The position numbers and the translations under genes are program-made. A model generated the notes under the pieces. It made no database searches. It was not told where the DNA came from and saw only the letters and a program-made list of their open reading frames with translations. From Eledone cirrhosa (Eukaryota), in the NCBI GenBank assembly GCA_964016885.1, contig OZ024750.1:43338001-43402000 (forward strand): a stretch of 64,000 bases of DNA, written 5' to 3'. Positions 15,178 to 26,754 of the stretch are shown here, in pieces (position 1 is the stretch's first letter; each line of letters begins with the position of its first letter).

Positions 15178-15215
<38 letters not shown>

Positions 15216-15400
15216 GATAAATCTACCAAGAGTTTACGGTAGTGTCCAATCCGTATGAAGAACTCAATGTATTCCGGATATCATGGAAAGAAGAGATGTA
15301 ATGAAAAATCACTTTCGGTGAAAGATAAACGGTATACAGAGTCAAGATAAAATATTAACCAAATAATGAATAAACAATTCCTTATATTGAACAAAAAAAG

Positions 15401-15554
15401 TTCATTATTTAACGATCGTTTCTAGGATATATATGTGTTAGAATTGGTATGCATATTCAACAGATCTATGTACAAAATTATACAAAATTATACAAATTAT
15501 CAAGATTAAATATACATACCAACACATATATACGCCGTCTTCAGAAATAATGAA
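15401..15554 (-). ncRNA. Type I hammerhead ribozyme near the PLE 3' end, with long helix II
   Basis: Minus strand: UUCAUUAUUU-CUGAAGA-[~115-nt hairpin]-GAAAC-GAUC-GUU-AAAUAAUGAA; 10-bp helix I, palindromic helix III; base of helix II imperfect. Confidence 0.75.
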
Positions 15555-16240
15555 GTATATTTATTGACAATAACAACAATTCAAAATTTCAGGTCCGTTT
15601 GGGAACAAAATTGACCAATGAAAACACAAAGGGTTAAATGCAGTTCGGTGTGTGTATATACATGTAAAACCCTTACACATATTTTACAAAAATGTATGTA
15701 TAATTTGTATACGCATACTAAAAGGATGGATGCAAATACAAAGTTTCAAGGTTAATATCTCTGTAAGTTTATAATGCACATATAAGATGCGCATTTAAGA
15801 TGCGCATTGACACAAGTATGAAATATAAATATATTTTTTCATACTCACACTTATCCGTACAATCACACATACACGCGCGTATATGCATAAATATACATAA
15901 CCACGAACATACAAACACACACACACCCCCACTCACATTTATATATGTGGATATAAAATCATAAGCACATGGATATTAATTCACTCACATAAAACACTGG
16001 CACACACATTTTTAGATCAAGATACAGAAATTAGGTGGGAGGGGGGGGGAGAGGTCAGTATTCAACGGTCTGAGCAGACTGCCTAATATAGATGTATCTA
16101 TAAACTAAGAAAATAAAAAAATAAAAAATAATAAAAAAACATTAAAGAGGAAAGAATAGAAAGAAAAAAGAAAAAAGAAAAAAGAAAAAAGAAATATATC
16201 AAGAAAATATACATATATATATATATATACATACATATAT

Positions 16241-16279
<39 letters not shown>

Positions 16280-16462
16280 TATATATACAATATACATATA
16301 TATACACATAGACACACACACACACATACATAAATATACACACATATACAAACACATACATACATATACACACATCCACACTAAGAACATACATACACAC
16401 ACATATATAAACATATACATATACACACATACATACATATACACATATACGCACAAATACAC

Positions 16463-16511
<49 letters not shown>

Positions 16512-17169
16512 TATACACACATATGTACATACACGTACATATACACACACATATACATATAATCACACATACTATATAGACGCACATATATATAACCACA
16601 CACATACATGCACATATACAACACTTACATATTAATATACATACAGATATACACATACATAGCTATATATACACACAAATATATACAGACTTACATATAT
16701 ACATACAGACAAATACTTACGCATCTATATATCGGTATATACATACAAACACCACTACACTATCACACAACTTAGAAATACAAAGAGACAGGTATATACC
16801 TATACACACATACATATACAAATAGAAAAACATATAGATATATATATATATATATATATACACACAGATACATATATACACATATATATATATATATAAC
16901 ATATACACATATATATATATATATATTTACACATACATATACACATACACACATACACATACACACACATACATACATGTACACACGCATAGAAATATAT
17001 ACGCATACACACATACACACATACATATAAAGTCATACACACACAAACACCTACACGAACATACACATACACATATATAAAGATATATATACATACACAC
17101 ACACACACAACACATACATACATACACATATATATAAAAAAAAAAAAATAAATAATAAAGATATATACA

Positions 17170-17219
<50 letters not shown>

Positions 17220-17577
17220 CATACACGTACACACATATATACATACATATACATACACACATACATAGACGTACATGTACATACATACACGTACATCGAT
17301 ATACATACATATATATATACACACATAGACACATACATACATACACACACAACTTACATACATACATATATATACATGTATATTCATACACAGAATTAGA
17401 TATATAATCATACATACATATGCACTTACTTATACTCATATATACAAATACATACACATCCATATATGCGTATATACATAAAAACGCCACTACAACCTCA
17501 CCTAACTCAGACATACAAATAAAAATAAAAAGGCATATGTATATACATATATACACGCATTAATAGAGACATATATA

Positions 17578-17633
<56 letters not shown>

Positions 17634-17887
17634 CACACATACATTCACATACATATATATATATAGATACCTACACACACATACCACCATAAATACACAT
17701 ACAAACACCCACATATACATATATATACACACGTATACATATATATATATATATATACACACACATAAAAAAACAGACATGCACATATATATATAATTTT
17801 TCTACACTTATATATACACATATTACATACACATACACAACCTCACATATACATACATACACATAAGTTATATTATAATAATAAAAA

Positions 17888-17966
<79 letters not shown>

Positions 17967-18026
17967 GACATACACATACATATATACATACATACGAAAT
18001 ATAGACATATAATCACACATAGACCC

Positions 18027-18065
<39 letters not shown>

Positions 18066-18284
18066 TACATATACACAGACACATATACACACTCACATAT
18101 ATATGTGTGTGCACACACACATATATACATACATACACATATATATACATAAACACATATATGTGCATACATGCACACACACACACATATATCACATAGA
18201 TACGAAGATAGACATATAAATAGGGAGACATACATATATATATACACAACACACATACACACACATACATACACACACACATAC

Positions 18285-22673: not shown

Positions 22674-24061
22674 TAACATTATTTTAGAAATTAATTTAAT
22701 TTAAATGTTATTTAACCTATAAATTTAATTTAATTAAAATTTTATTACAGATGAGAATATAAAATATTATGTAATCATAAATTGTGAAAAACCTTTAAAT
22801 ATTACTAATATATACTTAGTAATTTAATTTATAGATTAATTTTAATTTATTTAAACCTTTTATTATAATTCTTTTACAGATAAATTATAACAAAATAATA
22901 TCGTGTATCCAATGACAGAGAAATAATTTTTAGTATTATAGACCTAATTAATATACATTTTAGAAATATATTTATAATTTGGTTTTAATTTTAATCAACC
23001 TAAAAATTTAATTTTAATTTGCTTAAAGTTAGTATCCTTATACAGACGAATTGCAGAAAGTCATGTAATCATAGAATGAGATGTGTTTTGGATATATACC
23101 TAGTTAATATATTCTATGCAATTTTTTGAAAAAGATATGTATATGTATATGTGTATGTGTATGTGTGTGTGTATGTATATGTGTATATGTGTATATATAT
23201 ATATATATGTGTATATATATGTATATATGTATGTGTATGTATATGTATATGTATGTGTATTAATTTTGATGTCTATTTGCATATAATTATATTATGCTAT
23301 TGATAAAATACAATATCTGTTTTATGTATTATATACCTAATTAACATATACTATAGAAATAAATATATAATTTTTAATTTAGTTAACCTATAATTTATAT
23401 TCTACTACCGATGTAATACTTTATTTTATTTGTTTTTTCCCTATTACTAAATTCATTTCCTAATATTGATACCATAACGTTATTAACTTTAATTTAGTTA
23501 TACTATAATTAATACTCTACTACTATTTAACTTTAAAATTCTGCTTCAAATATTATAAACCTAACTAATTCACACCTTAGAAATCAATATGTTAACTATC
23601 TTTGGTTTAGTTAACATATAGTTAATGGTATACTTGTTTATTTTGAGATGCATAGATTTTGCCTTGGTTCTTGTTTGTTGTATTTCCTAACACTGAAACT
23701 ATGTAAAAACATACATTGGATCAAGATGCGGAAAATATTCTATGTTTCTTGAAACATATATTTAATATGATCCCCTTCTCCAAACCCCCCCTTTCCCCCA
23801 TACTATTATCATCTGTATTTGTAAGCGTGTATGTATGAATATATATGTAGGTAGGTGTCTATATAGGTTTGGGTATTTATATCTGAATATAAAAATACAT
23901 ATATGCGCATGCAAATATGAATGTAAGATTGTGTGTGTATATATGAGTGTGTGTATATATGTATATATGTGTATATATGCATGTATATATGTATGTGTAT
24001 GTGAATGTGTATATGTATATGTGTATGTATGTGTATGTATGTATATATATATATATATATA

Positions 24062-24110
<49 letters not shown>

Positions 24111-24329
24111 GTATGTGTGTGTGTATGTATGTGTGTGTATGTGTGTTGTGTATATATATATGTATGTCTCCCTATTTATATGTCTATCTTCGTATCTATG
24201 TGATATATGTGTGTGTGTGTGCATGTATGCACATATATGTGTTTATGTATATATATGTGTATGTATGTATATATGTGTGTGTGCACACACATATATATGT
24301 GAGTGTGTATATGTGTCTGTGTATATGTA

Positions 24330-24364
<35 letters not shown>

Positions 24365-24426
24365 GGGGGTCTATGTGTGATTATATGTCTATATTTCGTA
24401 TGTATGTATATATGTATGTGTATGTC

Positions 24427-24507
<81 letters not shown>

Positions 24508-24763
24508 TTTTTATTATTATAATATAACTTATATGTGTATGTATGTATATGTGAGGTTGTGTATGTGTATGTAATATGTGTATATATAAGTGTAGAAAAA
24601 TTATATATATATGTGCATGTCTGTTTTTTTATGTGTGTGTATATATATATATATATATGTATACGTGTGTATATATATGTATATGTGGGTGTTTGTATGT
24701 GTATTTATGGTGGTATGTGTGTGTAGGTATCTATATATATATATGTATGTGAATGTATGTGTG

Positions 24764-24819
<56 letters not shown>

Positions 24820-25177
24820 TATATATGTCTCTATTAATGCGTGTATATATGTATATACATATGCCTTTTTATTTTTATTTGTATGTCTGAGTTAGGTGAG
24901 GTTGTAGTGGCGTTTTTATGTATATACGCATATATGGATGTGTATGTATTTGTATATATGAGTATAAGTAAGTGCATATGTATGTATGATTATATATCTA
25001 ATTCTGTGTATGAATATACATGTATATATATGTATGTATGTAAGTTGTGTGTGTATGTATGTATGTGTCTATGTGTGTATATATATATGTATGTATATCG
25101 ATGTACGTGTATGTATGTACATGTACGTCTATGTATGTGTGTATGTATATGTATGTATATATGTGTGTACGTGTATG

Positions 25178-25229
<52 letters not shown>

Positions 25230-25887
25230 TGTATATATCTTTATTATTTATTTTTTTTTTTTTATATATATGTGTATGTATGTATGTGTTGTGTGTGTGT
25301 GTGTATGTATATATATCTTTATATATGTGTATGTGTATGTTCGTGTAGGTGTTTGTGTGTGTATGACTTTATATGTATGTGTGTATGTGTGTATGCGTAT
25401 ATATTTCTATGCGTGTGTACATGTATGTATGTGTGTGTATGTGTATGTGTGTATGTGTATATGTATGTGTAAATATATATATATATATATGTGTATATGT
25501 TATATATATATATATATGTGTATATATGTATCTGTGTGTATATATATATATATATATATATCTATATGTTTTTCTATTTGTATATGTATGTGTGTATAGG
25601 TATATACCTGTCTCTTTGTATTTCTAAGTTGTGTGATAGTGTAGTGGTGTTTGTATGTATATACCGATATATAGATGCGTAAGTATTTGTCTGTATGTAT
25701 ATATGTAAGTCTGTATATATTTGTGTGTATATATAGCTATGTATGTGTATATCTGTATGTATATTAATATGTAAGTGTTGTATATGTGCATGTATGTGTG
25801 TGGTTATATATATGTGCGTCTATATAGTATGTGTGATTATATGTATATGTGTGTGTATATGTACGTGTATGTACATATGTGTGTATA

Positions 25888-25936
<49 letters not shown>

Positions 25937-26119
25937 GTGTATTTGTGCGTATATGTGTATATGTATGTATGTGTGTATATGTATATGTTTATATATGTGT
26001 GTGTATGTATGTTCTTAGTGTGGATGTGTGTATATGTATGTATGTGTTTGTATATGTGTGTATATTTATGTATGTGTGTGTGTGTGTCTATGTGTATATA
26101 TATGTATATTGTATATATA

Positions 26120-26158
<39 letters not shown>

Positions 26159-26754
26159 ATATATGTATGTATATATATATATATATGTATATTTTCTTGA
26201 TATATTTCTTTTTTCTTTTTTCTTTTTTCTTTTTTCTTTCTATTCTTTCCTCTTTAATGTTTTTTTATTATTTTTTATTTTTTTATTTTCTTAGTTTATA
26301 GATACATCTATATTAGGCAGTCTGCTCAGACCGTTGAATACTGACCTCTCCCCCCCCCCCCTCCCACCTAATTTCTGTATCTTGATCTAAAAATGTGTGT
26401 GCCAGTGTTTTATGTGAGTGAATTAATATCCATGTGCTTATGATTTTATATCCACATATATAAATGTGAGTGGGGGTGTGTGTGTGTTTGTATGTTCGTG
26501 GTTATGTATATTTATGCATATACGCGCGTGTATGTGTGATTGTACGGATAAGTGTGAGTATGAAAAAATATATTTATATTTCATACTTGTGTCAATGCGC
26601 ATCTTATATGTGCATTATAAACTTACAGAGATATTAACCTTGAAACTTTGTATTTGCATCCATCCTTTTAGTATGCGTATACAAATTATACATACATTTT
26701 TGTAAAATATGTGTAAGGGTTTTACATGTATATACACACACCGAACTGCATTTA

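Follow-up and report, generated by a model that had tools for sequence, protein, structure and literature searches.

The locus described here raises the question of how two nearly identical, truncated copies of a PLE came to lie head to head in a single insertion (15214..26754) within the window, a stretch of 64,000 nucleotides of Eledone cirrhosa contig OZ024750.1.

Architecture and target of the insertion

Pairwise alignment of the left arm (15635..20962, minus strand) with the reverse complement of the right arm (21437..26754, plus strand) reproduced exactly the arms and the 474-bp spacer (20963..21436) that the initial annotation of this DNA had claimed. No substitutions separate the arms in 5309 aligned columns. 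The seven indels comprise five in dinucleotide runs (2-4 bp), one in a G-run (3 bp), and a tandem duplication specific to the left arm (15783..15808, aligned at 15783-15795). Six of the seven are therefore in simple repeats, as expected from the earlier description of microsatellite length differences, and the left-arm duplication holds, although it measures 13 bp rather than ~12 bp. In a masked self-BLAST the four longest unmasked arm segments (203-420 bp) returned E values of 0 to 4e-44; arm identity over such a length is far beyond chance.

The left arm is a 5'-truncated copy that comprises the RT thumb, the GIY-YIG endonuclease (EN), and a 3' region. The spacer, on the plus strand, constitutes the 5' portion of the right copy and encodes RT motifs A, B, and C, which had previously been placed in the right arm itself but lie in the spacer, continuous with the right copy. 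The two 5'-truncated copies are joined 5' to 5' at an inversion junction (20962/20963), with their 3' ends outward. Only the left side has the hammerhead (core at 15544, minus strand) and the 3' end, as had been noted; they lie in a 421-nt segment (15214..15634, minus strand) that continues through the tail to the fixed family terminus at 15214. The right arm ends 421 nt before that terminus and passes directly into (TA)n, overlapping it by 1-2 nt of TA. The two halves are almost equal, at 5749 and 5792 nt (lengths within 1%).

Both flanks are compound (TA)n arrays. The left flank (15110..15213) is the left part of the target, and the right flank (26755..27993) is a 1.24-kb array whose internal duplication is older and diverged. 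An identical interrupted TA-array unit is present in both in direct, not mirrored, orientation; its six occurrences in the window all fall within these two flanks and on the plus strand. When scored against the right array, the left flank matched best at the array start (79.6), with the internal repeat close behind (77.9), and the sequence is compatible with a possible target-site duplication of ~100 bp. No host exon was identified by Pfam in 143 of 215 candidate ORFs of at least 45 aa, a search that short exons would escape.

Coding capacity, clade, and 3' region

The right copy encodes a 569-aa, stop-free, 5'-truncated RT-EN ORF (P0001; 20964..22673, plus strand) in which a PLE-type RT is followed by a C-terminal GIY-YIG EN. 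RT motifs A, B, and C and EN residues Y450, Y463, R474, E533, and N546 are conserved in its alignment, and an N/T/K/H-rich insert of ~95 aa follows the thumb. The left copy retains a partial, stop-free ORF with thumb and EN (19726..20962, minus strand), for which the antisense spacer supplies an in-frame ATG at 20973. P0001 is without ~250 N-terminal residues, and no N-terminal PLE part was found within the 64-kb window, both copies being 5'-truncated. Neither copy is thus autonomous and the insertion cannot mobilise itself. Three decayed tandem copies of the ORF 3' end (22616..23019, plus strand; period ~135-145 nt; 74% and 78% identity) are mirrored in the left arm.

Pfam returned no significant match to P0001 and a PDB sequence search nothing meaningful. 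P0001 and 69 of 71 long homologues share a CxCX5C linker motif, whereas the CCHH motif (CxxC inside the GIY-YIG core) is absent from P0001 and all 240 homologues examined. All 10 aligned proteins share C527, C530, E533, N546, C555, and H557, such that CxxC and CxH flank E and N. The N-terminal motifs RW[KR] (64/71) and DK[TS] (70/71) characterize the long homologues in a region that is truncated in the insertion. Together with the type I hammerhead and the (TA)n target, which is that of the Hydra clade, the CxCX5C linker and lack of CCHH identify the element, as judged from its sequence, as a Hydra-clade C-terminal EN+ PLE. Neptune, Nematis, and Penelope-Poseidon are excluded by the lack of CCHH in the EN (and the first two also by a linker that is not CX2-5CxxC), as are Naiad and Chlamys, with an N-terminal EN, by the C-terminal EN. 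A separate PLE fragment at 8398-9183 does have CxxC inside its GIY-YIG core.

Searches of protein sets revealed no close family member; the best BLASTP identity was at most 50% among the 240 matches listed, and the best of 150 representatives (P0336) reached 62% identity over the EN only. Scans of prokaryotic genome contigs found no stray copies.

Hydra-clade PLEs include Hydra-1_Obim of Octopus bimaculoides and Penelope-13_HM (Craig et al., 2021, PMC8557442). The element shares with this clade the order RT then GIY-YIG EN, the CxCX5C linker, the lack of CCHH cysteines, CxxC and CxH around E and N, a canonical hammerhead near the 3' end, and the (TA)n target. Hydra-1_Obim is nevertheless a different family when compared by eye, since its hammerhead and linker differ. 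All 27 listed Hydra families are 1080-3045 bp in length, and the clade is generally <3 kb, whereas the unit here is at least 6.2 kb as visible and is inferred to be ~7 kb, a difference that is descriptive rather than diagnostic. The larger size is due to a 4181-nt region between the ORF stop and the hammerhead core (15545..19725, minus strand) that is rich in strand-biased TA/TG microsatellite and, from 15635 onward, is also present in the right arm. TRF covered 1891 of 4512 nt between the ORF stop and the terminus, and purine-pyrimidine alternation exceeded 80% in 40 of 82 windows of the microsatellite-rich region. No recognisable Hydra N-terminus is encoded in any frame of the tail. Our literature search, which reached a minority of subscription papers, returned nothing on Hydra PLEs whose 3' regions contain several kilobases of microsatellite-rich sequence.

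The type I hammerhead motif (15401..15554, minus strand) was detected by a descriptor scan (fold z = -6.15) and comprises a 10-bp stem I, a CUGAAGA core at 15544, a 115-nt stem II region that is unlike those of Hydra-clade families, and a palindromic stem III. Stem II begins with a C-A mismatch, and cleavage is predicted after 15411 (GUU). Repeats of 10 bp are present in the hammerhead stem. Rfam yielded 484 matches across the window, of which the 150 listed were all below gathering scores, were mostly microRNA models on microsatellites, and included no hammerhead; a local rescan gave two chance matches and no hammerhead.

Origin of the two copies

An inverted 5'-truncated copy is a published hallmark of PLEs, one Hydra family included: Penelope-13_HM is annotated with a 966-nt copy of this kind. 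The inverted layout is therefore expected and would not surprise a specialist. As in other PLEs, the copies are head to head, with inverted repeats at both ends and a one-sided extension (PMC8557442, PMC3846280), but published tails are 30-40 bp and inverted arms pLTR-sized, whereas the asymmetry here is 421 nt, hammerhead included, and the arms are 5.3 kb. The unusual features are this asymmetry, the 4.2-kb microsatellite-rich stretch, and the near-equal halves. Adineta vaga Pen1-Pen4 similarly feature N-rich in-frame ORF inserts and, in Pen1, a lengthy captured spacer that separates the ORF from the 3' pLTR, although Pen1 spacers are 0.9-1.5 kb and described as unique captured host DNA, as opposed to 4.2 kb of microsatellite-rich sequence (PMC3846280). 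The origin of tandem and inverted PLE structures was named an open question by Craig et al. (PMC8557442).

Small inserts in the window bear on this question. A miniature related insertion in (TA)n (47499..47604) comprises 32 nt antisense and ~74 nt sense. Its antisense part (47499-47530) recurs from the same terminus as 15214, with 31 of 32 nt identical, and its sense part stops ~140 nt before the family terminus; the two halves do not overlap, and each starts from a 3' site of its own. Another family in the window has a pair of fixed ends separated by 77 nt, which are used in either order. Head-to-head geometry was observed in all seven small inserts that were picked and measured.

What is observed directly is a pair of truncated copies joined 5' to 5', whose retained part preserves the RT and EN motifs intact, together with a TA-array target at either side and a fixed terminus at 15214. 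We consider it somewhat better than an even chance that this reflects one recent retrotransposition of a Hydra-clade PLE into a pre-existing compound (TA)n array, in which both nicked strands primed cDNA and the products were end-joined. The GIY-YIG EN would nick both target strands and either 3' end would prime reverse transcription, one at the usual tail site of the family (15214) and the other 421 nt further upstream via the 1-2 nt TA overlap. Both cDNAs, each of ~5.75 kb, would halt within the RT coding sequence, at points separated by 474 nt, and be end-joined at 20962/20963. Two separate RNAs may have served as template, or a single RNA copied twice with strand displacement, and the source transcript would already have carried the 4.2-kb microsatellite-rich stretch, as captured host DNA or as a slippage-swollen 3' region.

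Two priming events directly explain the non-overlapping halves and two 3' start sites of the miniature. The near-equal halves fit two polymerases that started and stopped together; such equality has a ~1.4% chance of coincidence under a uniform null, which was picked after inspection of the data, and it is not general, being observed in one of four small inserts compared. The right end of the insertion is 421 nt short of the terminus as against ~140 nt for the second end of the miniature, which makes a later deletion possible. In a study of the purified protein of PAc, a Poseidon element from Anolis, both strands are cut and extended, RNA has two internal start sites for reverse transcription, targets are AT-rich, and a dimer is predicted (PMC11167929). 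Hammerhead cleavage is dispensable there, consistent with a copy that reaches ~197 nt beyond the predicted cleavage site. PAc belongs to another clade, however, with adjacent start sites, and the part of that report available does not describe inverted products.

Priming of both strands also has a parallel in LINE-1 twin priming, in which internal priming from the second strand yields an inverted 5' part. LINE-1 inversions are essentially non-overlapping, whereas the two cDNAs here overlap by 5.3 kb.

Self-priming is the main competitor, although we regard it as rather unlikely. A single cDNA would start at the tail and reach motif A, its 3' terminus would loop back 474 nt and copy the cDNA itself, and 421 nt would be trimmed from the first end at integration or lost later. 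The absence of substitutions argues for this: with RT error rates that we assume, the probability of zero substitutions is 0.47-0.77 for one copying step versus 0.22-0.59 for two independent cDNAs, making the former somewhat likelier on this evidence. Spacers of 2-3 bp in two small inserts in the window are also as fold-back predicts. Self-priming is the published proposal for inverted PLE junctions, and the origin preferred by Arkhipova (2013, PMC3846280), and tail asymmetry has been ascribed to EN-mediated resolution (PMC8557442). However, the visible cDNA end is not complementary to its landing site, a 474-nt loop and a separate 421-nt trim are both required, and the miniature would need removal of most of its first cDNA. 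By sequence logic, fold-back on the plus strand cannot yield the spacer, and on the minus strand cannot yield the extra 421 nt without later trimming.

A further reading, which we consider doubtful, is that the family is a generator as well as a carrier of microsatellites. Slippage by a telomerase-related RT would have inflated the element's own 3' region, the 13-bp duplication would have arisen during insertion, and a dimer priming both strands at once would place this load into (TA)n as mirror pairs, with halves within 1% in length. The kilobases of TA/TG repeats, three ORF-end copies, 10-bp hammerhead-stem repeats, and 13-bp duplication are what suggest this.

It is improbable that the locus began as one ordinary 5'-truncated insertion and acquired its inverted duplicate later from DNA repair or replication, through template switching near fragile TA arrays. 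Near-identical arms, long TA arrays on either side, and a right-end site not seen in the miniature relative would all accord with such an event, but flanking host DNA is not included, both breakpoints are inside the element or at its TA target, and the head-to-head geometry is a known PLE signature that recurs in the small inserts. An artefact of the library or of assembly, whether a chimera formed by fold-back or amplification or a mis-join within TA arrays, is very improbable even though assemblers are troubled by long inverted PLE structures, polishing could homogenise arms, and SSR-length differences look like consensus errors, because a mirror of 15634-15214 and the left flank would be expected after 26754 where a TA array with the shared unit in direct orientation is present, the 13-bp duplication is atypical of sequencing error, and the left end agrees with that of an independent insertion. 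The long inverted structures of Pen1-Pen4 were likewise judged real from small-RNA polarity (PMC3846280).

Age and consequences

The initial description of a very recent, inverted, 5'-truncated PLE insertion is supported by the 0 substitutions in 5309 columns, which place a 95% upper bound of 5.6e-4 per site on divergence between the arms. At the octopus rate quoted in PMC13282606, this is an upper bound of ~0.08-0.16 Myr. The suggestion of an active family stands insofar as the family was intact when copied, but does not extend to the insertion, whose ORF lacks its N-terminal residues. The insertion was inert from the outset and is most likely functionless. Cruciform instability, which had also been proposed, is weakly supported: the 474-bp spacer disfavours extrusion, given that, according to a review, two 6-kb Ty repeats in yeast separated by 280 bp are stable unless replication is impaired (PMC7999016).

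Long dsRNA would form from the arms only upon read-through transcription. In Octopus bimaculoides both predicted dsRNA and hyper-editing are exceptionally high (PMC5625713), and PLEs inserted head to head are a candidate origin for them. Should the family indeed generate microsatellites, elements of this kind would contribute directly to the extreme abundance of microsatellites and dsRNA in octopus-like genomes. As a substitution-free insertion with kilobase arms, the locus is a clean test case, in which twin priming and fold-back can be told apart by comparing the arms with a family consensus. The locus also bears on how repeats are gained in SSR-rich genomes, as it shows kilobases of microsatellite being moved by a Hydra-clade unit over twice as long as those listed.

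Structure, target and age of the insertion

Alignment of window positions 15400-20975 with the reverse complement of 21424-27000 placed the left arm at 15635-20962 and the right arm at 21437-26754, as in the initial annotation, with a 474-bp spacer between them. The insertion (15214-26754) comprises two 5'-truncated copies of a Penelope-like element (PLE) arranged head to head (left copy on the minus strand, right copy on the plus strand). Across 5309 matched columns, the arms differ by 0 substitutions and seven indels: five of 2-4 bp in AT runs, one of 3 bp in a G run, and a tandem duplication in the left arm that was previously noted as ~12 bp but measures 13 bp. 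Pattern counting identified 31 simple runs in the left arm and thus, given the few run indels, most runs are unaltered between arms. The lack of substitutions bounds divergence at 5.6e-4 per site (95%), which upholds the earlier proposal of a very recent insertion and, at the octopus rate given in PMC13282606, corresponds to an age of roughly 0.08-0.16 Myr, with the caveat that arm differences could be masked by polishing or gene conversion.

The left end at 15214 matches that of a small independent insertion at 47499 (31/32 nt), indicating that 15214 is the fixed terminus of the family. The right copy ends 421 nt before this terminus, where it overlaps the adjoining (TA)n by 1-2 nt. Six sites in the window carry a 27-nt interrupted TA unit (one in the left flank and five in the right), all on the plus strand, and a 17-nt version was identified at one additional site (48872). 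The occurrence of this unit in both flanks in one orientation shows that the insertion split one compound array. Several hundred bases are duplicated within the right TA array (26755-27993), and the age and divergence of this duplication indicate that the array predates the insertion. The left flank aligns almost as well with an internal repeat of this array (score 77.9) as with its start (79.6), which makes a target-site duplication of ~100 bp no more than possible.

Coding capacity, clade and 3' region

A frame search identified a stop-free 569-aa RT-EN frame in the right copy (P0001; 20964-22673, plus strand). RT motifs A-C had been assigned to the right arm; their positions fall in the spacer. 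The junction also provides the left copy with an in-frame ATG (20973, minus strand) for a predicted 415-aa thumb-plus-endonuclease frame. Among 7983 candidates, 1033 were related to P0001 at E <= 0.001, and the cephalopod Argonauta hians was the sole informatively named eukaryote among the matches listed. This match, the microsatellite load, and the SINE-like repeat dispersed over the window (see below) point to a probable octopus host. One Hydra-type PLE protein (P0073) carries a Gammaproteobacteria label in a public MAG and is probably eukaryotic contamination.

Craig et al. 2021 (PMC8557442) recognize the Hydra clade of PLEs by insertion into (TA)n, a canonical hammerhead, RWK and DKT motifs, and a CxCX5C linker; its members lack CCHH and have their catalytic E and N flanked by CxxC and CxH. 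P0001 retains the CxCX5C linker, and a motif scan found its GIY-YIG core free of CxxC. Toward the C-terminus, CxxC and CxH do not vary across 10/10 aligned proteins. RWK and DKT, carried by 64/71 and 70/71 long homologs, respectively, belong to the part missing from the insertion. These motifs, rather than a tree, point to a Hydra-clade PLE. Homologs with a recognizable start (n = 31) have a median of 250 residues ahead of motif A, and a search of the whole window for a Hydra-type N-terminus did not identify one. Because this part is missing, neither copy is able to make active protein. Thus, of the stop-free ORFs of an active family envisaged initially, the frame is indeed stop-free, but the insertion itself is non-autonomous. 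The thumb-EN stretch of P0001 exceeds the homolog median by ~95 residues (164 vs 70) and is as long in 1/261; N-rich inserts of like kind are described for rotifer PLEs (PMC3846280).

The 3' region spans 4512 nt from stop codon to terminus (4181 nt to the hammerhead core), of which TRF repeats cover 1891 nt. At its start lie three degraded copies of the end of the ORF, and its central block has a strong TG/TA bias on the sense strand. Apart from simple repeats, the six 3'-region segments tested within the window matched a single sequence outside the locus, a miniature relative (47499-47604). A descriptor scan predicted a hammerhead motif with a 10-bp stem I, conserved core, palindromic stem III, and a 115-nt stem II region, compared to 12-36 nt in the other seven motifs of the window. 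The fold z of this region is -6.15 and the hammerhead-constrained fold lies 3 kcal/mol above the minimum; a local Rfam rescan did not detect the predicted hammerhead. The unit is at least 6.2 kb (~7 kb counting the missing N-terminus), and the 27 Hydra families listed in PMC8557442 are 1080-3045 bp. Captured spacers of 0.9-1.5 kb in the matching position of Adineta Pen1 (PMC3846280) provide a partial precedent. In Octopus vulgaris, PLE insertions from recent activity have a mean length of ~5.4 kb (336 insertions, 1,829,278 bp; PMC13282606), and repeat libraries therefore already hold long young octopus PLEs.

Origin of the inversion

Inverted 5'-truncated copies with a one-sided tail are typical of PLEs, and the annotation of Penelope-13_HM, a Hydra family, includes one (PMC8557442). 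According to Frangieh et al. (PMC11167929), a PLE protein cuts and extends both strands, starts at two internal RNA sites, is a predicted dimer, and does not require hammerhead cleavage. The accessible text of bioRxiv 10.64898/2026.07.22.740005 and PMC9977147 adds nothing further on inversions.

We slightly favor two separate priming events, each of which would have started one half. The miniature relative comprises two non-overlapping halves in opposite orientation, begun at two 3' sites inside (TA)n, and small inserts of a second family, arranged head to head within (TA)n (7395-7529, 46303-46468, 51699-51782, and 56879-57071), show two fixed ends separated by 77 nt; both observations favor two priming events. 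The second family is inferred from structure to be a PLE, and a hammerhead scan of its inserts detected none. The near equality of the insertion's own halves (5749 and 5792 nt) also speaks for this reading; a uniform null, adopted post hoc, gives it a probability of 1.4%. Halves were equal in 1/4 small inserts compared (126/126 vs 43/123, 51/139, and 32/74), which casts some doubt on two priming events. So does the lack of substitutions, which, given assumed RT error rates, mildly favors the single copying step of a fold-back, whereby the 3' end of one cDNA primes its own copying. Self-priming was argued for by Arkhipova 2013 (PMC3846280). However, here it needs a 474-nt loop and a separate 421-nt trim, and we consider it a possible but distinctly less probable origin than two priming events. 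Later duplication at the DNA level is improbable. An assembly or library artefact is less probable still, since the mirrored left end and left flank predicted by a fold-back chimera were not found beyond the right end.

Genomic context and consequences

No host exon was found in the window by Pfam searches of 143/215 candidate ORFs. Besides the insertion, the window has at least seven small inverted inserts, picked from self-BLAST and measured, whose arms span 43-126 bp; a predicted hammerhead was detected in 3/7. The small inverted inserts at 33182-33435, 32746-32899, 51265-51509, 47622-47840, and 46601-46774 have arms of 51-126 bp, and that at 33182-33435 has a predicted hammerhead in both arms and a 2-bp spacer. 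Another PLE, a 5'-truncated fragment (8398-9183, minus strand) with a GIY-YIG domain containing CxxC, appears by eye to be Penelope/Poseidon-like. A 467-bp repeat (9144-9610 and 14249-14715; 97% identical) weakly matches a C2H2 zinc finger on the minus strand. A SINE-like repeat of ~185 bp, which we take to be an octopus SINE, has many copies (9780-9964, 30092-30272, 30889-31071, 33669-33855, 39244-39426, 44273-44462, 47954-48135, 55286-55465, and 59073-59255). Short minus-strand frames at 37673-38128 and 43629-44138, presumably similar to RTE-type LINE 3' ends, had no Pfam match.

A 474-bp spacer makes the cruciform instability raised initially unlikely: in wild-type yeast, Ty repeats of 6 kb separated by 280 bp are described as stable, with breakage only under impaired replication (PMC7999016). 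Long single-stranded DNA is reported to make widely spaced repeats unstable (PMC10164571). Long dsRNA from the insertion would require read-through transcription; in Octopus bimaculoides, predicted dsRNA and hyper-editing are described as unusually high (PMC5625713).

Collectively, the results show a genuine and recent insertion that is non-autonomous and laid out as PLE insertions usually are. In size, microsatellite cargo, length of the hammerhead stem, and end asymmetry (421 nt), it goes beyond the descriptions that we found in the literature, and the element represents a new family within the Hydra clade.
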